Of a stretch of 40,000 nucleotides of DNA, positions 12 to 40,000 are shown piece after piece. The DNA is taken from NCBI RefSeq assembly GCF_039822625.1, contig NZ_JBDLLG010000018.1, positions 1 to 40,000 on the forward strand, in the 5' to 3' direction. This stretch comes from Marinimicrobium locisalis (GTDB lineage Bacteria > Pseudomonadota > Gammaproteobacteria > Pseudomonadales > Cellvibrionaceae). The notes under the pieces were generated by a model. That model saw nothing but the letters and a program-made list of their open reading frames with translations, ran no database searches and had not been told where the DNA came from. How positions within the stretch are numbered: the stretch's first letter is position 1; each line of letters opens with the position of its first letter. The position numbers and the translations under genes were made by a program.

Positions 12-56
12 GTGGGTCAAAATTAATGGCCAAACGTGGGTCAAAATAGATGGCCA
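12..56. repeat. Two 21-bp iteron-like direct repeats, GTGGGTCAAAAT-NN-ATGGCCA, at 12-32 and 36-56
   Basis: Read directly: gtgggtcaaaatTAatggcca and gtgggtcaaaatAGatggcca, 19/21 identical with a 24-bp period. They lie immediately 5' of, and overlap, the start of the Rep ORF. Confidence 0.6.
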
Positions 57-1469: not shown

Positions 1470-1493
1470 CTGTACTCCAAGGTCAAAGTAGCT

Positions 1494-1703
1494 CTAAATC
1501 ATCGAGCAACCAAAAAAGGGTTTCACGTTGTGATGAAGGTAAGACCCTAACGATTCCGCCCCCATTAACTCCGAGTAAATATGGTCGGGAACATCATAAT
1601 ATTGATAGATACGAGCATTATTAAATTCCACTTCCAGAATCGACGAATCCGGGTCGTACCCCACCGAGACCAAATTGCTTGAACTTACGGGTGTTCGTTC
1701 CAT
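1494..1703 (-). CDS. KTSC domain-containing small protein
   Basis: 69 aa. SSNLVSVGYDPDSSILEVEFNNARIYQYYDVPDHIYSELMGAESLGSY matches the KTSC (PF13619) pattern. Confidence 0.7.
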   Translation of the reverse strand: MERTPVSSSNLVSVGYDPDSSILEVEFNNARIYQYYDVPDHIYSELMGAESLGSYLHHNVKPFFGCSMI

Positions 1704-1741
1704 AGTAACTATCTCCAGCGCTATCGACGTTAGCTAATAAT

Positions 1742-4688: not shown

Positions 4689-4844
4689 TTAAGCTCCTTA
4701 ATGATCGCCGTTGCCATTGACGCAGTATCGACACCCAAAATACGGTGGCAAACATAAGGATTCAAGAGAAAACGAATATATGTCTCAGAACGGACCTGAA
4801 ACCATCAGAAAAATAGGACTTAATATGGACTTAAATGACGGGCA

Positions 4845-4871
4845 CAAAAAAGCCCGCTACATGAGCGGGCT
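4845..4871 (-). terminator. Rho-independent terminator of the tRNA-Ala gene
   Basis: Minus strand reads AGCCCGCT-CATGT-AGCGGGCT followed by TTTTTTGTG, beginning 29 nt after the tRNA 3' end. Confidence 0.7.
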
Positions 4872-4899
4872 TCTAAGTCGCTGATTTAACAGCATTTTT

Positions 4900-4975
4900 T
4901 GGTGGAGCCTAGCGGGATCGAACCGCTGACCTCAACACTGCCAGTGTTGCGCTCTCCCAGCTGAGCTAAGGCCCC
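4900..4975 (-). tRNA. tRNA-Ala (anticodon GGC)
   Basis: Minus strand reads GGGGCCTTAGCTCAGCTGGGAGAGCGCAACACTGGCAGTGTTGAGGTCAGCGGTTCGATCCCGCTAGGCTCCACCA. It has a 7-bp acceptor stem with the G3:U70 alanine identity pair, anticodon loop CTGGCAG, a GTTCGATCC T-arm and an encoded CCA. Confidence 0.95.
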
Positions 4976-23497: not shown

Positions 23498-25349
23498 GTC
23501 GAGTAGGCCGAGGGAACTGCCCCCTCAGCCTCTCTCAGAACCGTACGTGAGCCTCTCGACTCATACGGCTCTTCGTATTCAGCACATTTGACATTTTCCA
23601 GTGTGCAAACAGATATCTCGACTGCGTTCGCAGCTTGTCGATAAAAGTCCAACTCTTTCGGCAACTTCGTCTCAGTCGTTTGTACTTCTTTCTGGCCCAA
23701 CGCATTAGCGTTTGGTCCAGGTACTTCCTGAGCCGATACACACCGTCTGCTAGTCCGAAATGGCCATAATAATTCAGCCATCCTGTCACCACAGGATTGA
23801 GCTTCGCCGCCAATTCTACCGGCGTCCTGCCGCTCCAGTTGATCACATCCCACTGCCTTACTCGTTCTTTGATCCGCTTGAAGGCTTTCGCGCTCATTGA
23901 CGGACTAAAGTTCGTGTAGTTCTGCCCCTTGCGGTTCCTGGCTGAGCGTGGCCTGAAAGTGTACCCCAGAAAATCGAAGGTGATCACCGCGAACGGCCCC
24001 CTCCGGTTGCTATCCTTGCAGTACACTTTCCTTGTCTTGTCTGGATGAGCCTCTAGACCACAAACCATCAAACGCTCCTTGATCGCGGACAGCAGCCGAT
24101 CCGCCTCCCAAGGCGTCCGGCAGTGATACACCACATCATCCGCGTACCTTTCAAAGGGTATCTTAGGATATTCCCTGACCATCCACGCATCCAATGCATA
24201 GTGCAAAAACAAGTTGGCTAATAGCGGACTGATCACACCACCTTGGGGCGTGCCACGATGTCGACTTGCTTGCCGACCGTCGGCGTACTCCACCGGCGCC
24301 GTTAACCAGCGCTCAACATATAATCGTACCCAGGGGTGCGAGTTATGCTTGTCCAGCGCTTTTAACAGCAGGGCATGGTCTATGTTGTCGAAGAATCCCC
24401 GAATGTCTACATCAACAACCCAGTCTACCCACCAACAACGCTGCTGCGCCTGGCGCACGGCGTCTATTGCGGATTTACCCGGGCGATAGCCATAGGAATC
24501 CGGGTGGAATACCCTCTCCAACTCCGGCTCCAGCTCTTGTTTAACCACCATTTGGGCAATACGGTCTTCCACGGTGGGTATTCCCAGCGGACGTAAACTG
24601 CCATCCGCCTTTGGAATCTCCACGCGTTTAACCGCCGCCGGAAAATAGCTGCCTGACGATAGCCGGTTCCACAGTTTGTACAGGTTATTACCCACATCCG
24701 CTTCGAACTGCTCAATCGAGACACCGTCAATGCCTGCACATCCCCCATTGGTTTTGATGCGCTTCCACGCCTCCCAAACCACACGCTTGGGTATGTCAAA
24801 TGGCTTTGTGCTAATCGCTAATTCCTCCCCTTGCGGGTTGATTGAACGCTTATCACTGAATACGACAACCCCTTCGCTCCACCGCCATTACAGAGGCTTC
24901 ATCACTACTACGGGTTGTTCCGCCCCTGTGCCGGATATTGGTACTCAACTTCTTGTAGGTTCTCTACTTGAAGGGCTCCCTTAACACCCCGGCGACAGGT
25001 TCTCCTGTTCCATCCAAAAGCCTGCTGTGTGTTCACGCCGCCTTTATGCCGGATGCCGCCCAGTCGGTAAAACAGGTTTCCTCCGAGCTTATCCCCGTGT
25101 TTAGCCAGCCACGGGTTTTGACATCGTCTTACTCGCTTTCGACACCTCATCGACGGTTCACTTGCGTTCGTCTCCACACAACTTACCTGACGTATCGGGT
25201 ACGCCTTTTCCTCAAACGCTTCCGACCAAAGCTCTTAACTTCAGCCACTTTGAGGCGGTTTGCCATCACTTCCTGTAAAGCGATGGCGGAGGGCCTACCT
25301 CCATCTCCTGGATAGCATGGCTTGATTCGATCAAGCCTTCAGGACGCAC
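23498..25349 (-). mobile_element. Complete bacterial group II intron (about 1.85 kb) with intron-encoded RT/maturase
   Basis: On the minus strand the 5' end is GTGCG at 25349. Domain V is GAGCCGTATGAGTCGAGAGGCTCACGTACGGTTC at 23571-23538. Domain VI is GAGAGGCTGAGGG-GGCAGTT-CCCTCGGCCT(A)CTC with the bulged A at 23504, and the 3' end ...CGAC is at 23498. A hairpin loop GCTGGCTAAA (25109-25100) contains TGGCT, which is complementary to the last 5 exon nt AGCCA (candidate EBS1/IBS1). Confidence 0.85.
23535..24782 (-). CDS. Group II intron reverse transcriptase/maturase (no recognisable HNH endonuclease domain)
   Basis: VWEAWKRIKTNGGCAGIDGVSIEQF, RPLGIPTVEDRIAQ, the RT motif 5 YADDVV and a maturase X-like C-terminus (GWLNYYGHF). 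The conserved KPFDIPKR lies upstream of the listed GTG, so the true start is probably a non-canonical codon further 5'. The last codons and the stop overlap domain V. Confidence 0.9.
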   Translation of the reverse strand: MVWEAWKRIKTNGGCAGIDGVSIEQFEADVGNNLYKLWNRLSSGSYFPAAVKRVEIPKADGSLRPLGIPTVEDRIAQMVVKQELEPELERVFHPDSYGYRPGKSAIDAVRQAQQRCWWVDWVVDVDIRGFFDNIDHALLLKALDKHNSHPWVRLYVERWLTAPVEYADGRQASRHRGTPQGGVISPLLANLFLHYALDAWMVREYPKIPFERYADDVVYHCRTPWEADRLLSAIKERLMVCGLEAHPDKTRKVYCKDSNRRGPFAVITFDFLGYTFRPRSARNRKGQNYTNFSPSMSAKAFKRIKERVRQWDVINWSGRTPVELAAKLNPVVTGWLNYYGHFGLADGVYRLRKYLDQTLMRWARKKYKRLRRSCRKSWTFIDKLRTQSRYLFAHWKMSNVLNTKSRMSREAHVRF

Positions 25350-25629: not shown

Positions 25630-26055
25630 TTACCTTTTTCGCAGCCATCTAATTTGTGTATAAACCTTTGTAATTTCGACAGCAATAACAGCACTTAAAA
25701 GAACTATATATAGCGCCGGAACAAACTGCTTTAGCGACATAACAAAAAATGCACTTGGGGGAATGATTAGAAAAAACCTGAAAGGCGCCTGCGCTAGAGA
25801 TAAATACACGCCCGATTTCATTCTAACCAGCATAAGTATCGCCGATACGATCACTGAAGCCTTCATCAGATGTCCAACAACCGTCAGGGTAGCGGGATAA
25901 GCTGCTCCAAAAGACTTAGCAGCATCCAAGTCGGAAACAAAATTCGTGTAATATGGAACATTGCCGTGATAGATAGCGAGTCCAATCATCCACACCACGT
26001 ACGCTAAATCGAGCGCACCCCAAAATATTATTGTTCGATCTAAATTAAGCTTCAT
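25630..26055 (-). CDS. Putative Rhs immunity protein, 4-TM inner-membrane protein (141 aa)
   Basis: The ATG at 26055 overlaps the Rhs stop (ATGA), indicating translational coupling. Four hydrophobic helices are visible (IIFWGALDLAYVVWMIGLAIY, LTVVGHLMKASVIVSAILMLV, FRFFLIIPPSAFFVM, ALYIVLLSAVIAVEI). The gene is AT-rich relative to the rhs core. The track ORF start (26124) lies inside rhs and is unlikely. Confidence 0.6.
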   Translation of the reverse strand: MKLNLDRTIIFWGALDLAYVVWMIGLAIYHGNVPYYTNFVSDLDAAKSFGAAYPATLTVVGHLMKASVIVSAILMLVRMKSGVYLSLAQAPFRFFLIIPPSAFFVMSLKQFVPALYIVLLSAVIAVEITKVYTQIRWLRKR

Positions 26056-29000
26056 GGCAGAACATCCCAGGTTGGAGACGGAACTGGTGGTGCCCAGTGC
26101 CAAGAGTTTCCTTCTACTGCCCATGGGTCAGGATGATCCCCAAATGTCTGTTCAATTGTTCGAGTATCTCCCTCCATAGGATCATCTGGCATACAATAAT
26201 CTCTCTGATTTTGCGGATCATTCGGGTGATCAACCCAAGTTTGGGTCACATCCCTTGTAGCCCCCTCGAAATTATATGCATTCATGACAGTGCCTTCATC
26301 AAGGTTGGAAAGCCTGTCGACAATGCCAATAGCCCAATTTTTGACTCCGTGATGATCTACACCTGTAGTCACCCAAACAAGTCCCAATGGATCTACATAT
26401 TTCAGAGGATTTCCACTCACGTAAGCGTAAGTATTGAGCCCTCCTCGCAGACCTATAGGATCACTCTGAAGATACCTCCCGGTGGTCGGATCGTAATCCC
26501 TGAAGTAGTTGTAATGCAGCCCCGTTTCACTGTCGAAGTACTGGCCCGGAAACCGAATTTTGTTGGTAACTTGCGCGACTTCCACGCTGGCTTTTCCAAA
26601 CGGCGTGTACACGGCCTTCCACACCACGGTCTGCTGCGCATCGGTCAACAGCTGTGGGGTCCCCAGATGATCATTGTGATAGTAGTACACTCGATTTCCG
26701 CTGACCATCGACAGTGGAGCGCCTTCCAGGTAGACGTATTCCCGTATCGCATTGCCCGCGCTGTCGTATTCGCCGATCAACTGACCCTGCTCATTGTAGA
26801 GGTAGTGGATGACGGTGCCATCCGGGAGGGCCTTGATGACACGCTGGCCCAGGGCGTTATGGGTGTAGTCCGCCACCGTGGTACCGGACTGTGAGGCTTG
26901 TACCATCCGGTTGGCGGCGGAGTACTCAAACTGATAAGTGCCGTTGTTGATGGTATTGCCGACCGCGTCGTATTGGTAATTCTGGGTGCCTTTCAATAGG
27001 AGGTGGTGGCTGTCGGTGGCGTACTGGTAGTTTTCAGCGACACCGTCGGTGGTCTTGTCGGTGCGATTGCCGACCGGGTCGTAACTGAATTGAAGGTCGT
27101 AGTCGGAATTGATTGCTTCCACCAGACGGTTGATCGGATCATAGGCATAGTCGACGGCATTGCCTGTATTGGTCGGGTCTTCAATGCGGGTGATGTTGTT
27201 GACGGCATCGTACTCGTAGAGCCGGCGGCGCAAGGGGTCGCTGTCGCCCAGCTCGATGCCGGTCAGGCGGTAGTCGAGGTCATGGGTGCGGACCTCCTGC
27301 AGGCCATTGCCGTAAGTCACTTGGGACAGGGGGCCGAACGGCAGGTAGTCAATCGAATCCGCCAGCACCTGATCACTGCTTTGGCCGTTAAGCCGGGTGT
27401 GCAGAGCGCTCACCCGACCTTGAGTATCGCGGGTCAGGGACAGCTGCTGCCCAGAGGGGTAGGTGACGCCCGTCAGCTGGCCCGCTCTGTCATACTGGTA
27501 CTCGACAGTCAGCGCGTGGCCGTTGAGTTCGGTTTCCTTGCGGGTCACGTTGCCCAGGTGATCGTAAAAGTAACGGGTGGTACCAGACGGGTCTTCGACT
27601 CGAGTCAGCCGACCGATGCCGTTGCGGCCTGGGTCCTCGCTGTCATAGTGGTAGCTGACATTCTCCCCGGGGAAGTCCGGGTAACGCACGGCGGTCAGGC
27701 GATTGAGGGCATCGTAGTCGTATTCGGTACGCACGCCACGGGCGTCCTGGCGGGAGATGCGATTGCCCGCGCTGTCGTACTCAAAGGTGGTTAGGCCGGT
27801 GTCGGGGCTGGTCACTTCCACCAGATTGCCCAGGCCGTCGTAGCGGTAGTGGGTGGTGAGGCCCTCGGGGTCGGTGACGGAACTGATCTGGTCTCGGCTG
27901 TTGTAGGTGTAGTGAGTCTCGCCCAGCGCGGGGTCGATCACTTCGCTCACCCGGTCCAGGGCGTCGTATGCCCGCTGGGTTTCATTGCTGCGTTCATCCA
28001 GAGTGCTGACCCGGTTGCTGTTCACGTCATAGCCATATCGGCGCACGCCGCCATCGGCTGACGTCTGTTCCAGCAAGCGTCCAAGTTCGTCAAAGACCTG
28101 GGTGTGACGCTTGACCAGCTGACCACCCACGTCGTGGATGCGCTCGGTGGTCACGTTGCCCATGGCATCGTGTTGGAACTCGACGCGCTCGCCGTCCGTC
28201 GCCTCGATGGCGGTCAGGCGATGGGCGGCATCGTATTCGTAGCTCAGGTGGGTGCCGTCCGGTAGGGTCAGGCGGGTGAGCTGGCCGACCCTATCCCGCT
28301 CGAAGGACGCGACCGCCCCTCCGGTCTGCTGACGGATGAGTCTGCCTCGGGCATCGTAGTCCAGCTCGGTGACAACGCCATTGGGATCGACCAGACGCAC
28401 GGGACGGCCAGCTGCATCATGGTTCGTGATCTCAGTCGTTTGATATAGGGCGTTGATGACGCGCACTCGGTTACCCTGGCCGTCGTACTCAAATCGGGTG
28501 CGATCAGGTACGTCGGTGCGCGGGCCGTCAATGTCGGTAACCTGCCCGTATGAGTTATGGCTGTACCCAGTGACCTGGCTAGCGCCCGTGGCCCTATCGA
28601 CGACACGAATCTCGCTACGATTGCCAGCGGAATCATAACTCAAATGGCGGCTCTGAGCTGTATCGTGAATAGCCGTGGGACGGCGAAATTCTGGGTGCCA
28701 CTCGATAGCGCTGCTGCGTTCGTCTACCGTCTCAAATGCTTCCACGCGTCGCAGCTCCAATCCTCGCTCGTCATGAGTATAAAGGCTAGCCACGCCACTA
28801 TAGTCGACTTTCTTGGCAAGATGGCCATTGGCATCATATGAAAAAAGAGCATCCTCTGGAGCGCAATTCTCACAAGCACGCCGTTCAATGCGGGTTACCC
28901 TGCCCCGCCCATCGAATAGGTCGTGCTCATAGAGCAGTGTGGTGTCGCGCTCTGCGTCTACTTGGTAAGTGACCTCAGTTTGGTGATCCCCCAGATAGCG

Positions 29001-30800
29001 AAGCGCCACCCGACCGGCGCCACCGGCGTGCTCACTAAGCACCGCGCGCCCCTCACTATCGTATGCGTAGGTGGCATGGCGCTCACCATCTTCATCAATG
29101 ATACCGGTGATATTCCGAGGGTTATCTGGGTCTTCGAACAGATACTGCCGGCGCGGATTATCGGACGAATCGTTAGTCGTGTCATCCGGGTAGATTACGG
29201 TAGTCAGGTTGCCGAGGCTGTCGTATTGATAGCGGAAGACGTGCCCTTCTGGAGTCGTGATAGCGACTACCCGATAACCGCCACTTTTCCATGCTCGCTC
29301 ATACACCATGGATCGACCGCGTTCATCGGTTATCTCCTGGCGTCGAATGTTGCCCTCGACGGTCCACGAACTCCCATTCGGCTCGTTCATAGACCTTAGG
29401 CCATTAGAAGCGTGAATAACGAGAACTCTGCCGCCGGCCATCTCATAGCGATATAACCGGGTTTCCGGATAATAGCTAAGGACTTCTCCCTCGGCATTGC
29501 GGTATTCAGAGGTCGCTGAAAAGCCACGGTAGTCGTCAGTCACGAAAACGTCGACTCGATTACTGGGGAAACGCAGCTTCACGGCACGAAGCTTTCGATC
29601 CCCCCATTCCATGCCTACATTGACATGCTCCACTTGGTAATCCAACGACCAATTCCATCCTGCCTCAGTTTCTGAGAAACGGTTAGGAAGCCTCTGTGCG
29701 CTCGGATCATCACGATGAGCATAGAGATTCCGATCACGAACCGACTCGCGAACGCGACGACTACTATACGTGCGCATGATGCTGAGACCATCGGGAGCGA
29801 AGTAATCAGTCTCGTGCTGCACTTTCGCTCCAGTGATACAGGAGATCGGGTTGCCCACCAACGAACTGGCGCTATCCCCGAGCCCAGAACTACCCGAGCC
29901 TGAAGCAGAGGTGCTCTCAGAGCAGGGCTGATAAGGAATATCATCCACCTGACACAGTTCCGGCGTACGGTGAAGGCGCGCCACACCAAGCTTGCGATTA
30001 AACTCCCAATAGGGCTCGTGGGGGATATTCTCGCAGTAGGGAGAACCCGCTACGATCTGATAACCACAACCACAAACGTCAAAATAAGCATTGAAAGGTA
30101 CCTTTCCATGGTGATAGATGTAACCGGTATTGCCCTCATCGTCGACATATATAGAACGCGCGGCACAACTGTAGGGTAAGTTCGCAACTGTCCTTCCGTG
30201 GGAGTCAACAGAGCTTTCTGCTCTGTTCCAATCGATTTCGATCACGACTTGACCTTCTCCGCCCCACTCCTCGTGCTTGTTGTGACAGGCTTCTCGAATT
30301 GCATCTACTGCAGTTGTTGATAAAACACTTGCGCTGGCACGCCAGCCAGTTTTAACTCCATCCCCCTCGGGAAGCGCCACTGTAGTACCTTGATGAATCA
30401 CTTCTTCCGAAATGGCCGGATAACTTGAGACAGCACAAAAAATGACGAATACCATCCAGGCCACACGAGAGAGCGCTCTGGATCTATGGCGAAAATGCGC
30501 ATCATGAGGGCACCGATCCCCCACCCCCCAGAACTGTGCCCCTGCTCTCTCCGCCCAGGCCAGAGGCTCCTGCTTGCGAGGACTCCACTTGATCACGAAA
30601 TTCTCTTGTCCCTGTTTACATAAACGCTTTCGGTTTTCACTAGGATCATTGGCGCTGTCCAGACGAAACTCTATCGATGCCCCCGTCAAAATTCGGGCAC
30701 GAGGGATGATCTGCCTTATCGCATTCAACAATCCGTTACTGGCAAAAGGGCCGTCGGAACGAGCAAAACAAAAACTCCATTTCTTTGTCGACATCGTCAA
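26052..30800 (-). CDS. Rhs / YD-repeat polymorphic toxin with a variable C-terminal toxin domain
   Basis: Dozens of YD repeats (YxYDxxGNL/R). N-terminal plug-like [18 protein letters not shown]. Rhs core end ...[13 protein letters not shown]...[59 protein letters not shown], followed by a 108-aa tail. The start is uncertain. The ATG at 30794 has an AAGGA SD. The ATG at 30455 would instead give a signal-peptide-like N-terminus ([18 protein letters not shown]). Confidence 0.9.
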   Translation of the reverse strand: [1582 protein letters not shown]

Positions 30801-31227: not shown

Positions 31228-32196
31228 CTAACCCGAATATTTCATCAATAAGCTACCCGGTGTGCGTGATTGCTTAGAGGCGCTGCTGAGCAACAGCATT
31301 ACCTGGCGGGTATTTCGAATGACTACACCACCGATTTTCAATAGCTTCAAACGGATGGTGCCGACCTGGACCGAGACCCACTCGGTGCCCGCCAGCGCCA
31401 AGTTACGCAGTCGTTCCACCAGCGTATAGGCCATTGCGGACAGTAGAAGGGAAAACTGATTGGGCCACCACTCATGGCAGGAGATTCGGCCAGAGAACAG
31501 GAGTTGCTGCTCCTTGATCCGGTTTTCAGTATCGCCTCGTGCGCAGTAGACTTTGGTGCAGAGGTGTTTGTCGCTCTGTTTGAGGTTGGTGACTACAGAC
31601 CGGAGGTTCACATTGCTCAGCGCGGTTCCACGATTACGGTTTCTGTGCTGAGCAGGAACAATCCGGCGCATTTCCTGAGAATAGTGCCGGTTCAAAAGCT
31701 CATAGGCTTCGGTTACCTCCTGACGAAGTTGGATCTTCTGAGCACCGGCCACACGGCCAACCTTGTTGTGCCGGTGCAGTTTAATCAGCGCCTGCTGGTA
31801 TTGAATCAGGGCGTTCTGAAAGCTGGTGGTGCGGCCCTGGGCGGCTGCCACACCCACACCGGCAACGCCGTTGACGTCCGCAGGGGAGGGTAGCTCAAAA
31901 TTGGCCAAGTGGCGCTCGTAGAATTCGGCCATAGCGTGAACATCCTCACCATAATTCGCCACGCATTGGTCCAGGTTTTGGCGAGCGGTCATCGGCAGGC
32001 TGTTGAACTGTTGTGTCACTATCTGCGAAGCGAGAGAGGACGAAGAGGATGTATTGTATGCGAAGTACCCAGACATCGTCGTATTTCCATTGGAAACCTG
32101 AGGGTTACAGCTTAAAAACTGCTCCAGAGTTTCCGGGTCCTGCTGGCAAAGCTGATTGGCGTTGGCAGGGGTCCGTGAAAAGCGGATATCCGGCAT
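31228..32196 (-). pseudogene. Chimeric ORF: 5' about 210 codons of an unknown gene fused in frame to a C-terminal fragment of an IS1380-family transposase
   Basis: Good SD (AAGGAG, 7 nt) before the ATG at 32196. The last ~110 aa (VYCARGDTENRIKEQQLLFSGRISCHEWWPNQFSLLLSAMAYTLVERLRNLALAGTEWVSVQVGTIRLKLLKIGGVV) match the conserved C-terminus of IS1380 transposases. The junction is near 31560. The N-terminal part has no motif I can assign. Confidence 0.65.
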
Positions 32197-32593: not shown

Positions 32594-32612
32594 AATGTTA
32601 TGTTATAACATT
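32594..32612. promoter_or_regulatory. Zur-box-like operator upstream of the dksA2-type operon
   Basis: AATGTTATGTTATAACATT is an 18/19 match to the palindrome AATGTTATAWTATAACATT and contains the perfect 12-bp palindrome ATGTTATAACAT (32600-32611). It lies 70 bp upstream of the dksA2-type start. The downstream genes are classical Zur-regulon members. Confidence 0.65.
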
Positions 32613-32681
32613 ACTAACTTAAATAATGCCCAGTTTCACCCGCAACATGACGCTGGTAGACGTCAAAAGTAGGCAAAAATT

Positions 32682-33092
32682 ATGGCGGTTACAGAAGAAT
32701 GGCTGACCCTGGCCTCTGACGAAGAGTATATGAACGCCAACCAACTGGCCTTTTTTCGGGACAGGCTCTTGAAGCTGAGGGGGGAGAGTCTCCTTACCAT
32801 TGAGGCCACCCAACATAGTCTCGTCCAACGCCCGGAGCTAGACGACAGTGCCGAGCTGGCTCAGTACGAGGAGGAGTCGTGGCTCACGCTTCGCATCATT
32901 GAGCGCGAGGCAAAGCTGGTGAAAAAGATTGATTCCGCCCTGGCGCGCATTCGTCGGGGAGCCTATGGCTACTGCCTCGCCAGTGGCGAGCCGATTGGCA
33001 TTCAGCGGCTTCTGGCCCGGCCTACCGCCGAGTATTGCGCAGAAGTCAAAACGCAAATTGAAGAACAGGAAAAGCACTATGGCAAACGTTGA
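32682..33092 (+). CDS. dksA2: DksA-family protein of the zinc-independent DksA2 type (C4 zinc finger degenerated)
   Basis: DksA/TraR C-terminus [28 protein letters not shown]. Only the first Cys of each CxxC pair is kept (CLAS...CAEV), as in the Zur-regulated DksA2 of Pseudomonas. Confidence 0.75.
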
Positions 33093-34299
33093 AAGAAGGC
33101 TTCCCGTCACGGTTCTCTCCGGCTTTCTGGGCGCCGGAAAGACCACGGTGCTGAGCCATGTTCTGAACAACCGCGACGGCCGCCGGGTGGCGGTTATCGT
33201 CAATGATATGAGTGAAATCAACATCGACGCGGCGGCCGTACAGAGCGAGGTTCAGTTGAACCGCAGCGAGGAAAAGCTGGTGGAAATGAGCAACGGCTGC
33301 ATCTGCTGCACGTTGCGCGAAGACCTGCTCCTGGAGGTCCGCCGCCTGGCTCAGGAGGGGCATTTTGACTACCTTCTGATTGAGTCCACCGGGATTTCCG
33401 AACCCCTGCCCGTGGCCGAGACGTTTACCTTCGCGGATGAAGAAGGCAACAGCCTCTCCGATGTCGCGCAGCTGGATACCATGGTGACGGTCGTGGACGC
33501 CGTGAATTTCCTCAAGGATTACGATGAGGCCAAGTCACTGCAGGAAACCGGCGAACATTTGGGCGAAGAGGACCAGCGCAGCGTGGCGGAGCTGCTAGTG
33601 GACCAGGTCGAATTCGCCGATGTGATTCTGATCAGCAAGACCGACCTGGTGAATAAGCCAACCTTACAGCGTTTGGAAGCCGTACTCAGAACGCTCAACA
33701 CCGAGGCGGAAATCATCGCCATCGAGCACGGCGAGGTGAATATCGACAAGGTATTGGGCACAGGCCACTTCAGTTTCGAAAAAGCCCAGCAAGCACCGGG
33801 CTGGCTGAAGGAAATGCGCGGCGAGCATGTCCCGGAAACCGAGGAGTACGGTATCGGTAGCTTTACCTACACCGCGCGCCGCCCCTTCCACCCGCAGAAG
33901 TTCCACGCCTTTCTTCACGGCGACTCCATCACCGGAAAGCTGATTCGCTCCAAAGGTTACTTCTGGCTCGCCAGTCGGCCAGAGTTTGCCGGCCAGTGGA
34001 GTCAGGCGGGAGGCATGGCGCGGTACGGTTTCGCGGGAATGTTCTGGAATGCGGTTCCAAAGGAAAATTGGCCGGACGATGAAGAGTACCTAGCCTCCAT
34101 CCAACAGCAGTGGGAGGAGCCTTTCGGGGATATGCGCCAGGAACTGGTTTTCATTGGTCAGGGCCTGAATCGTCAGCAGTTTACCCAAGCGCTGGATAAC
34201 TGCCTGCTCAATGACGAGGAGCTGCACAGTGGCCCCGAGCAATGGGTGACCCTTCCCGATCCTTTCCCCCAATGGACCCAGCCCGCCGCTGAAGAATAA
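33079..34299 (+). CDS. COG0523-family (CobW/ZigA/YeiR-like) metallochaperone GTPase
   Basis: P-loop GFLGAGKTT, metal-binding [10 protein letters not shown], Walker B-like LLIESTG, and a CobW_C-like C-terminal domain. The start MANVERR at 33079 overlaps the dksA2-type stop. The longer track ORF (32929) is out of frame with dksA2 and unlikely. Confidence 0.85.
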
Positions 34300-34312: not shown

Positions 34313-34705
34313 ATGCGAAACGTACAAACCATCACCGATAAAACCGCCATCGGGTTGTCCACACTTTGTGCGATCCACTGCCTGATGCTGCCTGTCGCCA
34401 TTGTCATGCTACCTTCTTTGTTCGCCACCTCATTAGGTGACGAAAGCTTCCACCAGTGGCTTCTGCTGGCGGTAATACCCAGTAGCGCGACTGCCCTGAC
34501 CCTCGGGTGTCGGAGACATGGTCGCTGGGGGGTGGTCACCACCGGTGTTCTGGGTTTAAGCGTGCTGGTATTCACCGCCTTTTTCGGGCACGACCTGTTG
34601 GGCGAGACCGGCGAGAAGATTGCCAGCGTGGTGGGAGCGGCGCTGATTGTTGCCGGGCATCTGAAAAATCACCTCGCCTGCCGGAAAGGTTATTGTACAA
34701 CGTAA
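34313..34705 (+). CDS. MerC-domain-like small membrane protein (about 4 TM)
   Basis: Strong SD (TAGGAGG). STLCAIHCLMLPVAIVMLP with a CxxxC-type Cys pair in TM1 resembles MerC-family proteins. A C-terminal Cys pair (ACRKGYC) is present. Confidence 0.55.
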   Translation: MRNVQTITDKTAIGLSTLCAIHCLMLPVAIVMLPSLFATSLGDESFHQWLLLAVIPSSATALTLGCRRHGRWGVVTTGVLGLSVLVFTAFFGHDLLGETGEKIASVVGAALIVAGHLKNHLACRKGYCTT

Positions 34706-34906: not shown

Positions 34907-36574
34907 GTGGCGGGGAACTTAAAAGCAGATAAAGCCGAAAGCACCTTCACCCACAACTGCCCTGAGGCCATCGTGCTAGCTTATCTTATCCGTCAATCCC
35001 GCCCACTATTGATGGCCGCCTCCGCCGCTAGCGTAATATCTGGGATATGCGGCGTTCTTATGATTTCCAGAATCAACGTCGCAATCACGACAGAACACCA
35101 TTCCAAAGCTCTAATCTGGAGCTTTTTTGGGCTGATAGTGCTGTTAATGCTTTGTCGGATTTTATCATCGGCACTGTTCGAGCGCTTGGCTCAGCATGCC
35201 ATGGCGGAACTACGGCGCTACATATCAGGAAGGGTTTTGGCAGCTGAACTGCGGCAACTGGAGGAAATAGGGAGCGCCAAAATACATTCCGCACTAAGCG
35301 AGCATTGCTCAAGTGTCGTCCAGTTTTTCGTTACCCTACCCTCTCTATTGAATAACTCGGTGGCTGTTGTTGGATGTATGGCCTACATGGCGCTACTTTC
35401 ATGGCAGATATTTTTGGCCGCGTTGGTCATGGTTGGGTTAGGATCCCTGGGCCACTATCTGGCACAATTAAAGGCAATAGAGTTTCTAAAAAAAGCCTCT
35501 CACGAGCAAGATCGGCTGTTTGGGCACTTCAGGGCTCTTACCGATGGAGCGAAGGAGTTGCGTCTCAATGCTCGCAAACGCCGCATGTTCGGTAACGAGC
35601 TTTTGGGTCAATCAATCGAGGAAGTCCGCAAAAACCGCACAGCAGGCGCCTCGATTTTTATGGTTTCCTCCAGATGGGGAAACTTTCTAATTTATGCGTT
35701 CATTGGATTAGTGTTGTTTGTACTCTCAAAAAACATCCCCAATCGAGCCGAGGTGATGACAGGGTTCGCATTGGTATTTTTTTACATGATGGGACCTTTG
35801 GAAGGGCTATTAAGTGCCATCCCCCGCGCCAAAGTTTCCGGAGTGGCCGCCAATCGAATTGAAGCGATTGTCAGCGACATGCCCGAAACCGAATCGATGT
35901 CAACGTTAGCTCATCCAGATCGCTCATTTACTTCTTTACAACTTAAATCGGTGACCCATCGTTATTATCATGAACGAAGCGATGAACTGTTCGAGCTCGG
36001 GCCTATCAACTTGGAGTTTCAGCCAGGAACGGTTACCTTTCTGGTGGGTGGCAATGGCAGTGGCAAAACAACTTTAGCAAAACTAGTGACGGGGCTCTAT
36101 ACTCCGGAATCCGGCAATGTTTTCCTTAATGGCGTGCCGATAGCTGACTCCAGCCGCGATGACTACCGTCAGTTATTTTCCGCTGTGTTCTCAGACTTCC
36201 ATTTATTTGAACAGTTATTGGAGGTGCATCGCTCTAATCTCGACGAAGCAGGAAACCGACTGCTGCACCGGCTACATCTACACCATAGGGTTAAAGTCAA
36301 CGACGGTGCTTTTACCACCCAGTCTCTTTCTCAGGGGCAACGTAAACGTCTGGCTCTTGTGACAGCTCACCTGGAAGACCGACCTTTCCTGGTGTTTGAT
36401 GAGTGGGCTGCAGATCAGGACCCTACGTTTAAAGAAGTGTTTTATCGGGAGCTGTTACCCGAGCTTAAATCTGAAGGAAAGACCGTTTTGGTGATCTCCC
36501 ATGATGACCGCTATTTTCACCTAGGAGACCGGCTGCTGACGCTGGAGAACGGAAATCTGACCACAGTACCCTGA
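34907..36574 (+). CDS. Cyclic-peptide-type ABC exporter (fused TMD-NBD, YojI/McjD-like): candidate lasso-peptide exporter/immunity (D)
   Basis: Six predicted TM helices followed by an NBD with Walker A GGNGSGKTT, signature LSQGQRKRLAL and Walker B LVFDEWAADQDP. The DEWAADQD variant is typical of cyclic-peptide exporters. The start may be the GTG at 34973, which has GAGG 5 nt upstream. Confidence 0.8.
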   Translation: MAGNLKADKAESTFTHNCPEAIVLAYLIRQSRPLLMAASAASVISGICGVLMISRINVAITTEHHSKALIWSFFGLIVLLMLCRILSSALFERLAQHAMAELRRYISGRVLAAELRQLEEIGSAKIHSALSEHCSSVVQFFVTLPSLLNNSVAVVGCMAYMALLSWQIFLAALVMVGLGSLGHYLAQLKAIEFLKKASHEQDRLFGHFRALTDGAKELRLNARKRRMFGNELLGQSIEEVRKNRTAGASIFMVSSRWGNFLIYAFIGLVLFVLSKNIPNRAEVMTGFALVFFYMMGPLEGLLSAIPRAKVSGVAANRIEAIVSDMPETESMSTLAHPDRSFTSLQLKSVTHRYYHERSDELFELGPINLEFQPGTVTFLVGGNGSGKTTLAKLVTGLYTPESGNVFLNGVPIADSSRDDYRQLFSAVFSDFHLFEQLLEVHRSNLDEAGNRLLHRLHLHHRVKVNDGAFTTQSLSQGQRKRLALVTAHLEDRPFLVFDEWAADQDPTFKEVFYRELLPELKSEGKTVLVISHDDRYFHLGDRLLTLENGNLTTVP

Positions 36575-36578
36575 AAGG

Positions 36579-37505
36579 CTACAACGAAGGCACCGACGAC
36601 TTCTGCAGGTCCAATTTGGCTTTAAGAACAGATGTCTTACGAATTACGGGAACGACCCGTGCCAGACGATCATCGACATAATCTTTGAATAATGGCGGTC
36701 GCGGCGAGTCGAGATAAAACTGTCGATCCTGCTTAACGGCAGCAGGCAACAAAAAGTCTGACACATCCGCCTCGGACGCATCCATCAAAAGGCAAGGCAC
36801 GTAACAGAAACCCAGCTCGCGCAATGCATATACGCGGTGTGAGCCATTGGTCAGGATAATTCGACTACCCGAACGCGTGGCGCTGATCACGTTGTCGCTG
36901 AATCCTACATACATCACGATCGCATGGCTTGCCGCGCCAACGGGGCTGAAGTTTTGAATTGCATCCGGTTCGAGTGTTACGACGTCCAGAAAACGCAGGT
37001 CATTTGACGCCGAAGTGAACATATAACCGCCATCGGATTGTGTGCACCGAACGGTGGGATGCGAGTGGGTACCGCGGCAAGAAACAAGATCGATAACATC
37101 CTGAGCACTCGGGTCAGACACAAGGGAGGTCTGAATCTTTTCAACGTGACGCAAATTGATGGATTCCTGAAAAACGACCAGCCGATCAATCTCCACCATG
37201 CACCAACGTCGCGGTACCAGTGAAGCAACCCTTTGCATTGAGGGTTGCCGCAGCACCTCCTCCGCCAGAGGTTTCATTTCTTCCGAAAGTTCGCGCACAC
37301 CAATGCTATCGGCGACACCAGCTTCCTCATCCATGACTTGTAAAGCTACGGCGCGCGCTTCTCGCCACTCAGCCACCAAAGCGGGGTCCTCAAAGCTCCT
37401 GGGAGAACATCGCTCCCGGATAAAGCGTATGAATTGGGGTAATGGAAATAACCCCTTAATCACTATGGTCGGATTGCTACCTTCGTCACCCATCCCGGTG
37501 TTCAT
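36579..37505 (-). CDS. Orphan 308-aa protein of unknown function, divergent from the lasso precursor
   Basis: Long clean ORF with coding-like composition. I recognise no family. The only hint is RIILTNGSHRVYALRELGFCYVPCLL, which resembles the (D/N)GxHR...G...VP motif of ParB/sulfiredoxin-fold proteins. A Zur-type box lies 50-65 bp upstream of its ATG. Confidence 0.6.
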   Translation of the reverse strand: MNTGMGDEGSNPTIVIKGLFPLPQFIRFIRERCSPRSFEDPALVAEWREARAVALQVMDEEAGVADSIGVRELSEEMKPLAEEVLRQPSMQRVASLVPRRWCMVEIDRLVVFQESINLRHVEKIQTSLVSDPSAQDVIDLVSCRGTHSHPTVRCTQSDGGYMFTSASNDLRFLDVVTLEPDAIQNFSPVGAASHAIVMYVGFSDNVISATRSGSRIILTNGSHRVYALRELGFCYVPCLLMDASEADVSDFLLPAAVKQDRQFYLDSPRPPLFKDYVDDRLARVVPVIRKTSVLKAKLDLQKSSVPSL

Positions 37506-37526: not shown

Positions 37527-37554
37527 TTGAATGTAAATTTGCTATCTTTATAGT
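37527..37554 (+). promoter_or_regulatory. Putative sigma70 promoter of the lasso precursor operon (TTGAAT-16 nt-TATAGT)
   Basis: TTGAAT at 37527-37532 and TATAGT at 37549-37554. The -10 element abuts or overlaps the Zur-type box. Confidence 0.4.
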
Positions 37555-37570
37555 GATGTTATAACATTTC
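37553..37570. promoter_or_regulatory. Zur-box-like operator in the divergent promoter region of the lasso cluster
   Basis: GTGATGTTATAACATTTC, whose reverse complement is GAAATGTTATAACATCAC. It contains the same perfect 12-bp palindrome ATGTTATAACAT (37556-37567) as the box at 32600-32611. Confidence 0.6.
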
Positions 37571-37686
37571 ATTAAGTCGGATCAACAATCCCCGACTTCT
37601 ACGTTTTTATCCGTAGAGACTTTTCATCAACCCGCAATTGGCTGATGAAGATATTCGTTAGATAACGAACACAAGAGGTGATCATT

Positions 37687-37869
37687 ATGAACGAACTGAT
37701 TGAACTAGGCGTGTTAAACACAGGAAACAACGCGCAAAACAGCAGCGCTTTACCGCAGCACGAGCTCAGGGAGCTAGGCTTGGTGGTTTCAGAGACCAAA
37801 GCTCACGACCACAGCAGTAAGATGGACGACACCTTTCCATCCACATCCCCGGATTCTCTCTCACGTTGA
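37687..37869 (+). CDS. Candidate lasso-peptide precursor (60 aa)
   Basis: SD AAGAGG lies 8 nt before the ATG. The leader ends ...LRELGLVVSETK, fitting LxxxGxxxxxTx with Thr at -2. The predicted core is AHDHSSKMDDTFPSTSPDSLSR with Asp9 as ring acceptor. It sits directly upstream of the B and C genes. Confidence 0.55.
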   Translation: MNELIELGVLNTGNNAQNSSALPQHELRELGLVVSETKAHDHSSKMDDTFPSTSPDSLSR

Positions 37870-37879
37870 CATCCGGATT

Positions 37880-37915
37880 GGCGGGCGACTCCTCCACAAG
37901 AAGGAATCGCCCGCC
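37880..37915 (+). other. Stable stem-loop between the precursor and the B gene
   Basis: GGCGGGCGA-(18 nt)-TCGCCCGCC, a 9-bp GC-rich stem. It starts 11 nt after the precursor stop. No U-tract follows. Confidence 0.5.
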
Positions 37916-37937: not shown

Positions 37938-38642
37938 ATGGACCCCAAGGTGGAATCTCCGTACTTTCTCTCCAAGCAGGCACATGTATGCATCGCTGGC
38001 GGAACGATGTTTATGCTGGATGAGATAAACGGAAAATACCTAGCAATTGAAAAAACGCAAGCGGCAAGCTTCGAGCCCTTTATTGGAAATTGGCCGATAA
38101 AAGCGACAAGCTGTAACGCTCCGGTATTCCCTAGAGCTTTACTCCAGCGTCATTTAATAACTCCCTATCCTAACCTGGGAAAACCCGCCACACCGCCAAC
38201 AATTCAGCTACCCAACGTATGGTTAAGAGATGGGCAGCCTCGAGGACGACCCCGAATAACAGCGAAGGACGTTTATAGGTTCGCTATCTCCGTTTCTTGC
38301 GCACTCCATAGCAAAAAACGTTTACCGTTCAAAAATATAGTATCCATGGTTCAGAAGAGAAAACCATCCACACCAGAGCGACGGGTCGAAACTGACATAT
38401 TGGCATTATTGGTTCGTGTGTTCGATTGGCTTCGACCCTTTGCCTTTAAAAAAACAGATGAGTGTTTTCTTTACTGCTTGGCGCTCAACGAATTCCTGGC
38501 AAAATATAGCATCCACCCGACCTGGATATTCGCGGTTCAAGAGCAGCCGTTCACCGCTCACTGCTGGTTGCAATATGGTGACCAGGCGCTGACCGACATT
38601 CCATTCAACTTGCGGCGAATGGTGCCAATTCTCGTTCTCTAA
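37938..38642 (+). CDS. Lasso peptide leader protease, McjB-like (N-terminal RRE-like region fused to a transglutaminase-like Cys protease)
   Basis: SD ACGAGG lies 5 nt before the ATG at 37938. C-terminal ...ECFLYCLALNEFLAKYSIHPTWIFAVQEQPFTAHCWLQYGDQALTD fits the lasso B2 pattern C...PF.AHAW(V/L)...G....D (Cys/His/Asp triad). N-terminal HVCIAGGTMFMLDEINGKYLAIE looks like PqqD/RRE beta-strands. The track's GTG at 37866 overlaps the precursor stop and is less likely. Confidence 0.8.
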   Translation: MDPKVESPYFLSKQAHVCIAGGTMFMLDEINGKYLAIEKTQAASFEPFIGNWPIKATSCNAPVFPRALLQRHLITPYPNLGKPATPPTIQLPNVWLRDGQPRGRPRITAKDVYRFAISVSCALHSKKRLPFKNIVSMVQKRKPSTPERRVETDILALLVRVFDWLRPFAFKKTDECFLYCLALNEFLAKYSIHPTWIFAVQEQPFTAHCWLQYGDQALTDIPFNLRRMVPILVL

Positions 38643-38653
38643 GTCACCCACAT

Positions 38654-40000
38654 ATGTATCGATATATAGCGATTTTCTGGAACAGCTTCTCGTATCCGTC
38701 AGTAAATCAAGCCAGGCAAGTTAAGGCAAAGATAGAAACAAAATTTCCCAGTATGACATGCGCCTTAAAATCGGCTGATGCTGCAATCTACCATCAAAGT
38801 GACGACCAGGGAATATTTGAATGCAGCCAAGCGGGATCGCTCGTCATTTTTGGCAAGGTATTTGTTAAAAATTTCGGAACTGATATCGTGCCTGACACTG
38901 CCGTGTTCGACACCGGCTCTGCCACGGACGTTTGTAACAGTCAGGGGCGCGCACTCCTGAAAAACTACTGGGGAAGGTATATTGCATTTGGTTGTGACTC
39001 GAAGAAGGAAAAGTGGTTTGCTTTGCGAGACCCAACCGGAGAAATACCTTGCCATATCACCGTTATGGAACATGTCACCGTATTTTTCTCCAATACGGAG
39101 GACTGTTTGAAGCTGCAATTACGCCAGTTCTCCATTAACTGGCCCTACTTTGCCAGCTCGCTCATCCTTCCATTTCGAGATGGCAGCCAGACAGGTCTCA
39201 AAGAAATCACAACGCTGGAAGCAGCGGAGACGATGACTATTGAAAATGGAACTCCTGTGGCGCGAGAATCCCATTGGGATGTGGTACAAGCCGCCGCCGA
39301 GGACCCAATAACCGACTTGAACGAAGCTGTTCAGCTTGCACGAACAACCCTGCTTGGTTGTATTGGTGCATTGGCAAGCCAGCATACCCACATTCAGTTG
39401 AAGCTCTCTGGCGGGCTTGATTCCTCAATCGTCTTGGCGGGTTTGCTTCATGCCCCCTCAAAGCCCGAGGTAGAGTGCGTTCACCATTACGACCCCGGCA
39501 TCGGAGCGGATGAAAGGGAGTATGCAAGAATGGCGGTTGCAGGAGCCTCCCAATCCTCAGGCAGAACCTGCGAGCTTATTGAGCATGAACGAAGACCTTA
39601 CTGCTCCTTGGAAGAAATAATGGATTTCCCACGGACTGCTCGGCTCCTCTACTGCTCAGGCTACCTTCTCCATCGCGACGTCGGATCAATTAGCGCATTA
39701 AGCGGGGCGTCAACCCGATTTACGGGCGTGGGGGGCGATGCGGTATTCCTTCGTTTCAAGGGTAACGGCGGCGCGATCGACTACGCTTGGCGTCACGGGA
39801 TTAACCTGGAGTTACTGCGGGTCGCACTCGAAACCGCTCAGTCCGGTGATTCATTCTATGGGGTTTTAATGGACGCTTTTCGTTATGGAGTGCTCAAGAA
39901 GCCGCTTTCCGCGAATAAAAGGTGGGGAAGCCCTTGCGAATGGCTTCGCGCTGGCGCCAATCAAGCCGAACCCCAACCCGCGTGGATGCGACACGCGCTT
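38654..40000 (+). CDS. Lasso peptide cyclase, asparagine-synthetase-like (McjC-like), 3'-truncated by the window edge
   Basis: I translated 449 uninterrupted codons from the ATG at 38654 to position 40000. It is absent from the supplied ORF track because it has no stop in the window. It contains the PP-loop LKLSGGLDSSIVLAGLL and the later FTGVGGDAVF of Asn-synthase-B-type adenylating enzymes. Confidence 0.85.
   Translation, partial: MYRYIAIFWNSFSYPSVNQARQVKAKIETKFPSMTCALKSADAAIYHQSDDQGIFECSQAGSLVIFGKVFVKNFGTDIVPDTAVFDTGSATDVCNSQGRALLKNYWGRYIAFGCDSKKEKWFALRDPTGEIPCHITVMEHVTVFFSNTEDCLKLQLRQFSINWPYFASSLILPFRDGSQTGLKEITTLEAAETMTIENGTPVARESHWDVVQAAAEDPITDLNEAVQLARTTLLGCIGALASQHTHIQLKLSGGLDSSIVLAGLLHAPSKPEVECVHHYDPGIGADEREYARMAVAGASQSSGRTCELIEHERRPYCSLEEIMDFPRTARLLYCSGYLLHRDVGSISALSGASTRFTGVGGDAVFLRFKGNGGAIDYAWRHGINLELLRVALETAQSGDSFYGVLMDAFRYGVLKKPLSANKRWGSPCEWLRAGANQAEPQPAWMRHAL

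Follow-up and report, generated by a model that had tools for sequence, protein, structure and literature searches.

A predicted Zur-controlled lasso peptide of Marinimicrobium locisalis, from a clade with a conserved HxHG ring motif, and its possible role in zinc acquisition

The native function of proteobacterial lasso peptides has, for the most part, long been an open question; the majority are known from genome mining and have no known activity. The question is raised anew by a 40,000-nt stretch of Marinimicrobium locisalis DNA (positions 1 to 40,000 of contig NZ_JBDLLG010000018.1, assembly GCF_039822625.1; hereafter, the window), in which a small open reading frame (ORF) at positions 37687-37869 of the forward strand very probably represents lasA, the precursor gene of a class-II-type lasso peptide with an Ala1-Asp9 ring. 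What would such a peptide do for its producer? The overall explanation that we consider best, and that we hold with even confidence, is that a Zur-controlled, exported lasso peptide works in zinc acquisition. The clade to which the gene belongs would give the old question a concrete and testable answer, with a predicted metal-regulator operator, a candidate ligand pair, an exporter and a cognate receptor across several orders of the Gammaproteobacteria.

Translation of nucleotides 37687-37869 (forward strand) yields a 60-aa peptide, MNELIELGVLNTGNNAQNSSALPQHELRELGLVVSETKAHDHSSKMDDTFPSTSPDSLSR, followed by the stop codon (37867-37869), and matches exactly the precursor quoted in the initial annotation. 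The ORF listing calls the gene as 37678-37869 (forward strand, 63 aa) from a GTG start. That GTG (37678-37680) is situated inside the Shine-Dalgarno stretch AAGAGGTG (37674-37681, forward strand), whose GAGG is separated by about 8 nt from the ATG at 37687. Homologues of lasA start with ATG and share the N-terminus MNELIELG, and the homologue of Microbulbifer elongatus (locus L161) was independently called as a 60-aa gene. As the homologue starts agree and the GTG falls within the Shine-Dalgarno sequence, ATG 37687 is the correct start, as had been proposed. The peptide matches no Pfam or NCBIfam model. Its gene adjoins those of a B-type leader peptidase and of a C-type Asn-synthetase-like cyclase, and the order A-B-C is the same in 24 related loci.

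These loci come from an alignment of the B protein (A1), which retrieved 80 genome loci, 24 of them close. The homologous small ORF that would be expected beside homologous B and C genes was found upstream of B in all 24, with no alternative small ORF conserved at the precursor position in any of them. The taxa represented are Exilibacterium, Porticoccaceae, Steroidobacter, Woeseiaceae, Lysobacter, Pseudomonas, Stenotrophomonas and Xanthomonas. The small ORF was also present in every close metagenome locus with enough flanking sequence (L081-L088 and L090-L092).

Alignments divide the 38-aa leader (37687-37800, forward strand) into a MNELIELG copy, a degenerate linker and the recognition sequence HELRELGLVVSETK. 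Direct reading places Leu at -12, Gly at -8, Thr at -2 and Lys at -1; that is, the LxxxGxxxxxTx part of the conserved lasso leader motif is present, as first noticed, and the rest of it is not, Pro standing at -16 instead of -14 and Tyr being absent. The 22-aa core AHDHSSKMDDTFPSTSPDSLSR (37801-37866, forward strand), delimited by conservation across 43 distinct cores, begins with Ala1 (37801-37803), His2 (37804-37806), Asp3 (37807-37809) and His4 (37810-37812). In its first ten residues, AHDHSSKMDD, the predicted ring acceptor Asp9 (37825-37827) is indeed the sole acidic residue at positions 7-9, Asp3 being too early and Asp10 outside. The ring AHDHSSKMD would be a 9-residue macrolactam, with the 13-residue tail threaded through it. 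This tail includes Phe12 (37834-37836) and a TSP motif (37843-37851). The mature peptide, calculated as the core minus one H2O, has a predicted mass of 2399.0448 Da; the core is hydrophilic and acidic, its computed net charge being about -2.

The 43 cores were obtained by a search with the family profile (A4), which gave 58 protein clusters from which 62 precursors were parsed. Thr(-2) is present in all 62 precursors, followed by Lys, Arg or Gln at -1. Core lengths range from 17 to 24 residues, and residue 1 is Ala in 30 cores and Gly in the other 13; hence the ETK/A junction is kept and Ala1, initially regarded as rare, is the family norm. Residue 9 is acidic throughout (Asp in 40 cores, Glu in three), and position 10 is Asp in 10 and Glu in two of the 43. 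As position 9 is invariantly acidic and position 10 is Asp in a minority only, we take Ala1-Asp9 to be the ring, in accordance with the initial annotation and as securely as sequence comparison allows. His2 and His4 are each found in 42 of the 43 cores. Gly5 is equally frequent, the Ser5 of the window peptide being the only exception; the sole core without HxH (P0195) is a marginal match (E = 0.009). The residue between the histidines is Cys in 16 cores, Asp in 14, Asn in nine, Gly in two, and Ser and Trp in one each. Of the His-Asp-His metal-ligand triad put forward at first, the two histidines are thus retained and the aspartate is not: as a conserved triad it had to be rejected owing to the variability of residue 3, and the conserved unit is HxHG, so that a ligand set common to the clade could only be HxH. 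In the tail, TSP occurs in 39 of the 43 cores, within [FL]P[ST]TSP. Position 12 is Phe in 14 cores and Leu in 12, and Phe12 is a plausible steric plug. The sequence AHNHGTLWDGVFPTTSP is common to eight protein clusters, and near-identical cores occur across whole genera.

Comparison of the window with its closest relatives (L001 and L002) indicates which parts of the precursor are maintained. Codon changes in the core were synonymous and non-synonymous in ratios of 11:2, 10:4 and 7:4, and most of the differences fall on third codon positions; for leader residues 9-24 the ratios were 4:7, 2:10 and 2:6. Identity is 77-83% along the ORF versus 51-65% in the flanking intergenic DNA. Since the changes in the core are mainly synonymous, we conclude that lasA is translated and under selection; judged by these ratios, the core and both leader motifs are under purifying selection and the linker is not. 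Most leaders of the family contain two copies of ELIELGxVV, and single-copy precursors of 32-33 aa also exist (P0190-P0192 and L003). In the first copy of some long leaders a relic of junction and ring can still be read (ETKAPNHGD, GPKAHNHGD, EAKAHDNS); such relatives are among P0159, P0168-P0170, L081 and L082. Because first copies retain these relics and single-copy precursors exist, the alignments indicate that the long leader arose by tandem duplication of a short precursor; residues 9-24 of the window leader would accordingly be a decayed first core. The N-terminal leader copy differs between the window and L001 by three synonymous and no non-synonymous changes and, as it is still under purifying selection, is probably functional.

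Distant clusters (L025-L077) have in common the leader (I/V)ELGxVSEETK up to the cleavage site, followed by Gly1 cores without HxH. As they share the leader and not HxH, the HxHG motif is specific to the clade and the cleavage site is anchored. Cores with A1 or S1 reappear in the more distant loci L049, L061, L067, L077 and L104. On these comparisons the clade, which is previously undescribed, is found in marine bacteria, Stenotrophomonas, Xanthomonas and Pseudomonas; carriers include Stenotrophomonas maltophilia, Xanthomonas, some Pseudomonas aeruginosa and marine Cellvibrionales. It is defined by predicted Zur-box control, the HxHG ring, the TSP tail, the duplicated leader and fixed partner genes, namely those of the ParB/Srx-like protein, the exporter, the TonB receptor and the DUF3526 ABC-2 transporter.

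The leader is of the type found in benenodin/subterisin precursors (NF033522, PF24178), which ends in ELIELGxVVSETK with Thr at -2. Relatives of lasA match both models through the leader, at profile positions 8-22, with 12.9-26.7 bits against NF033522 (cutoff 33) and 14.1-25.2 bits against PF24178 (cutoff 27), and the window peptide gave no match to either even at E ≤ 10. Taking into account this lack of a match and the relatives' scores below the curated cutoffs, we place the window peptide outside the benenodin/subterisin family, although one Xanthomonas member is labelled 'Benenodin family lasso peptide' in UniRef. Unlike benenodins and subterisins, the cores of the clade start with Ala, contain HxHG and TSP and would form a 9-residue ring, the leader is duplicated, and the genomic context, with its Zur-like box and the gene of the ParB-like protein, is a different one. 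Among the flanking ORFs that were annotated, the conserved gene set includes no recurrent family of isopeptidase size. Caulonodins IV-VII, class II peptides of alpha- and gammaproteobacteria that begin with Ser1 or Ala1, provide a precedent for B and C enzymes accepting a residue (Ala) other than Gly at position 1; they differ from the window peptide in having neither HxH nor a known metal-linked regulation, and their cores are not homologous to it.

Several members of the family deserve separate mention. Whenever residue 3 is Cys (16 of 16 cores), the tail contains a further Cys; 24 of the 27 other cores are Cys-free. Relatives with this pair include P0159, P0169, P0171-P0190, L004 and L081. 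The pair suggests either a ring-tail disulfide (class III/IV-like) or additional metal ligands (H-C-H plus C), the disulfide seeming likelier because residue i+1 and residues i/i+2 face opposite sides of an extended strand. Two precursors of Stenotrophomonas type (P0193 and P0194) have a normal leader and a frameshifted core (…SETARLAPLL… and …SKRRRTTTARCG…), which is either a strain-level pseudogene or a sequencing error. Outlying ParB-linked members occur at 9811-9951 of L023, with the core HNGKPGIYIDPETGQCTDHSEDELGCPYFEE and a near-canonical Zur-like box GGAATGTAAGAATATAACATTCC, and at 9775-9870 of L022, with a different core. Locus L094 holds three tandem precursors, ending in …TRTA, …TRTH and …TRTM. 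The scaffold L007 (JBJNRH010000003.1) is labelled Nocardiopsis yanglingensis, yet its lasso locus is that of Stenotrophomonas in precursor, box and neighbours, the precursor being identical to those of L008 and L009, which suggests that the assembly is contaminated or mislabelled.

Maturation would be carried out by the products of the two genes that follow. lasB (37938-38642, forward strand, 234 aa) encodes a predicted fusion of an RRE-like leader-binding domain and a transglutaminase-like Cys protease. It matches Pfam PF13471 at residues 131-231 and NCBIfam NF033537 (lasso_biosyn_B2) with 59.7 bits (cutoff 33), and is 100% identical to the NCBI entry 'lasso peptide biosynthesis B2 protein [Marinimicrobium locisalis]'. 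C176, H208 and D220 are invariant in the alignment of its homologues, and their spacing (32 and 12 residues) presumably corresponds to that of the McjB catalytic triad C150/H182/D194. The AlphaFold 2 (AF2) model of LasB has a pLDDT of 86.9, and the best fold matches of its N-terminal domain, weak ones, are 5v1u and 5v1v, TbiB1/RRE-leader complexes (TM 0.57 over the target, probability 0.82, E about 0.5). lasC (38654-40000, forward strand), an Asn-synthetase-like cyclase gene, is cut by the window end after 449 of about 616 codons. From ATG 38654 it encodes the conserved MYRYIA N-terminus and an SGGLDSS motif; its counterparts in L001 and L002, of 616 aa, share 80-83% identity with it. A full-length homologue matches PF00733, matches to the NCBIfam lasso cyclase model being sub-threshold. 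The RRE-like domain of LasB would bind the second ELxELGxVVSETK motif of the leader, its Cys protease (C176/H208/D220) would cut after Lys38, and LasC would activate the Asp9 side chain and join it to the Ala1 amine. Between lasA and lasB, a GC-rich hairpin without U-tract (GGCGGGCGA ... TCGCCCGCC; 37880-37915, forward strand) folds with -37.4 kcal/mol (z = -4.9; none of 200 shuffles folds as well). Hairpins of this kind, GC-rich, of 9-13 bp and unrelated in sequence, follow the precursor stop in all 21 loci examined. Acting as a partial terminator or by stabilising the transcript, the hairpin likely sets the A:BC ratio, and would keep the precursor in excess over B and C.

What would switch these genes on? 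Upstream of lasA and facing it, a consensus scan found a sigma-70-like promoter, TTGAAT-16 nt-TATAGT (37527-37554, forward strand; 9 of 12 matches). Its -10 element TATAGT is abutted by the Zur-box-like palindrome AGTGATGTTATAACATTTCA (37552-37571, no strand assigned), with the core ATGTTATAACAT at 37556-37567, an arrangement that is the usual geometry of a repressor site. When compared with the published E. coli Zur motif, TRWNAYRWTATAWYRTNWCA (PMC6103462), the box shows one mismatch, 17 of the 18 specified positions being matched. The 40 kb contain two sites only for this motif, each with one mismatch, versus 0.10 expected. The second site (32596-32615, no strand assigned) is located upstream of dksA2, zigA and a merC-like gene, and the 12-mer ATGTTATAACAT occurs in the window only at 32600 and 37556. 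Zur-regulon members include zigA, dksA, COG0523 proteins, TonB receptors and cnt metallophore genes, with zigA and dksA2 listed in Acinetobacter and Pseudomonas (PMC6103462); for this reason the site at 32596 serves as a positive control within the window.

Relatives of the locus were consistent with this picture. In 16 of the 24 loci, from several genera, the interval that separates the ParB-like gene from the precursor contains an exact TGTTAY-N3-RTAACA, a sequence with only 28 occurrences in 520 kb. At the start of the linked TonB-receptor operon, a box with at most one mismatch is present in 16 of 21 loci, compared with 3% of random 400-nt windows. The Zur context initially invoked for the peptide therefore holds at the sequence level, and we regard control of lasA by Zur as likely. 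Under zinc sufficiency Zur would occupy the promoter box, and zinc starvation would lead to transcription of lasA-B-C. The transcript would start with a putative 5' untranslated region (UTR; 37572-37673, forward strand) in which RNA folding predicts four short hairpins; nucleotides 37570-37690 fold with -29.1 kcal/mol (z = -2.7), and no Rfam family matched in this UTR. A stem-loop of the TCAATCA…TGATTGA type in it is also present in L001 and L002.

The conserved gene set around the precursor was established by ORF clustering across loci, by Pfam and NCBIfam searches, and from the annotated Microbulbifer elongatus locus. It consists of an ABC exporter gene (sometimes accompanied by MacB and a membrane-fusion protein), the ParB-like gene on the minus strand, and A, B and C. 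Convergent to A-B-C, the relatives carry genes for an ABC-2 ATPase, two DUF3526 ABC-2 permeases and a TonB-dependent receptor; this operon is syntenic in at least 18 loci plus Microbulbifer, and the receptor matches only generic receptor models of NCBIfam and no specific family. In the window, the exporter (34907-36574, forward strand, 555 aa) is a permease-ATPase fusion and the probable peptide exporter. It matches NCBIfam TIGR01194, 'cyclic peptide export ABC transporter', with 473 bits (cutoff 286), and also E. coli PRK10522 with 422 bits; it is syntenic and 81-85% identical in L001 and L002, and is present in L161. It lies downstream of the Zur-boxed dksA2-zigA genes on the same strand and may be co-transcribed with dksA2, zigA and the merC-like gene. 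Of these, dksA2 (32682-33092, forward strand) was assigned by its DksA domains and its position, zigA lies within the ORF 32929-34299 (forward strand; NF038288, 704 bits, cutoff 600, the match starting at residue 58), and the merC-like gene (34313-34705, forward strand) encodes a MerC-family membrane protein.

Divergent from the precursor throughout the family is the gene of a 308-aa ParB/sulfiredoxin (Srx)-like protein (36579-37505, reverse strand). It has 76 homologous clusters, 54-85% identical across genera, and at least 516 relatives in metagenomes. Pfam and NCBIfam searches with 34 members gave no match, and a PDB profile search was negative. N220-G221-x-H223-R224 is invariant in the 34 sequences. 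In the AF2 model (pLDDT 88.3) this NGxHR is placed where strand 215-220 gives way to helix 222-230, that is, as a (D/N)GxHR-type nucleotide-binding motif on a strand-helix element. The top Foldseek matches are all ParB, Noc, sulfiredoxin and SbnI, weak (E ≥ 0.085) and over about 55 residues, and two members of the family are labelled 'ParB/Sulfiredoxin domain-containing' in UniRef. Close metagenome relatives with enough flank adjoin HxH precursors together with B and C. Distant ones (33-39% identical) adjoin lasso precursors without HxH and with a C-terminal Ser/Thr cluster (L094 and L104), and others adjoin M50-HlyD fusions, a FemAB-like protein and a Gly/Ser-rich peptide (L113 and L122). A reasonable guess is that the protein tailors the TSP tail, perhaps in an NTP-dependent manner. 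Distant homologues are abundant in soil metagenomes.

Predicted Zur control, an exporter and a cognate receptor together make up the outline of a zincophore system. The exporter is in the window; relatives have a syntenic receptor/ABC-2 operon, which is preceded by a box in 16 of the 21 loci. In proteins, zinc is classically ligated by HxH pairs on extended strands, such as His94/His96 of carbonic anhydrase. Because the invariant His2-x-His4 is accompanied by a co-regulated receptor, capture and recovery of zinc are suggested. We rate a zinc-binding or zinc-acquisition role of the peptide somewhat below even. The fuller proposal, still more tentative, is that this would be the first lasso zincophore and the first ribosomal zinc metallophore: Zur-repressed, exported, binding Zn(II) through the His-x-His of the ring and recovered by a co-regulated TonB receptor, the ParB/Srx-like enzyme perhaps tailoring the TSP tail. 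The ABC exporter would secrete the mature peptide, Zn(II) would be bound outside the cell by the pair of ring histidines, to which Asp3, Asp10 or the tail may contribute, and the cognate TonB receptor would take up the peptide-zinc complex or its metal. Sequence comparison shows the precursor gene with its junction and ring acceptor, the invariance of HxHG, the synteny and the matches to the Zur box; what we infer are the threading of the tail, repression by Zur, export, and the binding and uptake of zinc.

Known metallophores offer partial parallels. The opine zincophores pseudopaline (cntOLMI) and staphylopine likewise combine a biosynthesis that Zur represses with an exporter and a TonB receptor of their own; cntOLMI is listed in the Zur regulon of P. 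aeruginosa (PMC6103462). They differ in being small and non-ribosomal and in offering at least four donor atoms, whereas the peptide described here is ribosomal, with only two invariant histidines and a proposed, tentative zinc binding. Methanobactins are secreted ribosomal copper binders taken up through TonB receptors; chemistry (oxazolone/thioamide), metal and enzymes are different from those of the lasso clade. In astexin-type clusters, linkage to a TonB receptor reportedly prompted earlier speculation on a scavenging role. The present clusters are likewise physically linked to a TonB-dependent receptor. Unlike the astexin type, they have a metal-regulator box and a conserved ligand-pair candidate, and the conserved neighbours, as far as the flanking ORFs were annotated, include neither an isopeptidase nor FecIR-type genes. 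To our knowledge, no lasso peptide is known as a metallophore. In the literature searched, with subscription-only papers outside the search, no lasso peptide was linked to Zur or zinc and neither the core sequences nor the clade were described; the word 'zinc' is absent from a 2026 review in which lasso peptides are mentioned 245 times.

Several observations weigh against the zinc-acquisition proposal. Only His2 and His4 are invariant as donors, Asp3 and Asp10 of the window peptide not being conserved, and known zincophores have at least three to four donors; two donors may not give sufficient affinity if the site is not completed by further groups, by a 2:1 complex or by the receptor. The variable residue 3 would point away from His2 and His4 in an extended ring. 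ABC-2/DUF3526 systems look like exporters, and neither an inner-membrane peptide-metal importer nor an isopeptidase was found among the conserved neighbours, not every flanking ORF being annotated. As the window ends inside lasC, the TonB-receptor operon is not visible in M. locisalis itself; exact-sequence look-ups with the B and ParB-like proteins of the window gave no record from which the cluster could be completed, and the M. elongatus locus took its place. With regard to regulation, the promoter call is not significant by itself (one found versus 0.9 expected), and the box before the precursor is weak or different in L001, L003, L016 and L161. Residues 1-131 of LasB match neither a PqqD hidden Markov model (HMM) nor Pfam, and the E-values of its fold matches are weak.

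The main rival, which we consider unlikely, is an antibacterial peptide induced by zinc starvation that would enter competitors through their Zur-induced TonB receptors, with HxHG as a receptor or target pharmacophore and the exporter, perhaps also the ABC-2 system, conferring self-immunity. Antibacterial lasso peptides do enter through TonB-dependent receptors, as microcin J25 (MccJ25) does via FhuA, and the arrangement of A-B-C with an ABC exporter (here TIGR01194) matches that of antibacterial proteobacterial lasso clusters; PRK10522, which the exporter also matches, we take to be YojI, the exporter of MccJ25. The small number of invariant histidines for a chelator and the typical exporter function of ABC-2 systems point in the same direction. 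The MccJ25 system (mcjABCD) resembles the present one in the A-B-C order and the ABC exporter; its leader ends in TK at the cleavage site, and McjB is a fused RRE and Cys protease. MccJ25 itself differs in its Gly1-Glu8 ring, its hydrophobic character and its RNA polymerase target, and FhuA is the receptor of the victim. Here, by contrast, the receptor is encoded beside the cluster, with a Zur-like box, and the exporter is of the TIGR01194 (YojI/PvdE-like) type. In nearly all genomes the producer keeps beside the cluster a co-regulated cognate TonB receptor, which would be hazardous if the product were a toxin. The hydrophilic, acidic core is unlike the RNA-polymerase-targeting lasso peptides, and the locus is core-like across whole genera, with near-identical cores and without the strain-level diversification typical of bacteriocins.

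Less probable again is a peptide without direct metal chemistry, in which the conservation of HxHG and TSP would reflect their recognition or modification by the ParB/Srx-like enzyme (e.g., phosphorylation or nucleotidylation) or signalling through the receptor, Zur only timing production. No partner is linked more tightly than the ParB/Srx-like protein; the NTP-using sulfiredoxin and the serine kinase SbnI are among its weak fold relatives, and distant homologues adjoin HxH-less precursors with a C-terminal Ser/Thr cluster (L094, L104, L022 and P0195). HxHG, however, is specific to the Zur-box clade; as the partner is broader than that clade, the ParB-like protein does not explain HxH. Moreover, its family has neither an HMM match nor a known catalytic activity.

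We give still less credit to the palindrome being the operator of another Fur-family or unrelated regulator, in which case the peptide would not be zinc-controlled. Zur was assigned by sequence similarity, no zur gene was seen in the window, and some relatives carry a different palindrome, e.g., GTAACGTTAC in L161; against this, the identical 12-mer precedes zigA and dksA2, both listed Zur-regulon members, and 17 of 18 specified positions of the published motif match (PMC6103462). A different ring or cleavage site is very improbable: Asp10 adjoins Asp9 in the window core and the leader has a second, N-terminal ELIELG copy, but Asp10 was rejected as acceptor on the position 9 and 10 counts given above, we know of no lasso peptides with 10-residue rings, the N-terminal copy in the window lacks Thr(-2) plus a small residue, and the short single-copy precursors P0190-P0192 keep the ETK/AH junction.

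Should the peptide bind or deliver zinc, a ribosomal knotted scaffold would join the short list of zincophores, and, if the proposal is true, the ParB/Srx-like protein and the DUF3526 ABC-2 transporter would be parts of a metal-uptake pathway. Even if it is an antibiotic, control of a lasso peptide by zinc starvation would be new. The carriers include the opportunistic pathogens S. maltophilia and P. aeruginosa and plant-pathogenic Xanthomonas, for which zinc acquisition matters in infection.

Elsewhere in the window, upstream of the zinc/lasso region, a group II intron (RF00029, RF01999) was found at 23498-25302 (reverse strand), with a reverse transcriptase (RT)/maturase ORF at 23535-24782. 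It is accompanied by the gene of a 1582-aa RHS-repeat protein (26052-30800, reverse strand) and by an ORF (31228-32196, reverse strand) that matches only the C-terminal part of a DDE transposase model; together these three mobile or toxin elements suggest an island boundary or horizontal acquisition. At the other end of the window are the gene of a phage GPA-type replication protein (36-1469), those of a HerA-like helicase (1742-3532, reverse strand) and, beside it, a SIR2-like protein (3504-4688, reverse strand), and a tRNA gene (4903-4975, reverse strand). The region 36-4975 resembles a tRNA-linked mobile element that carries a SIR2-HerA pair for defence against phages.

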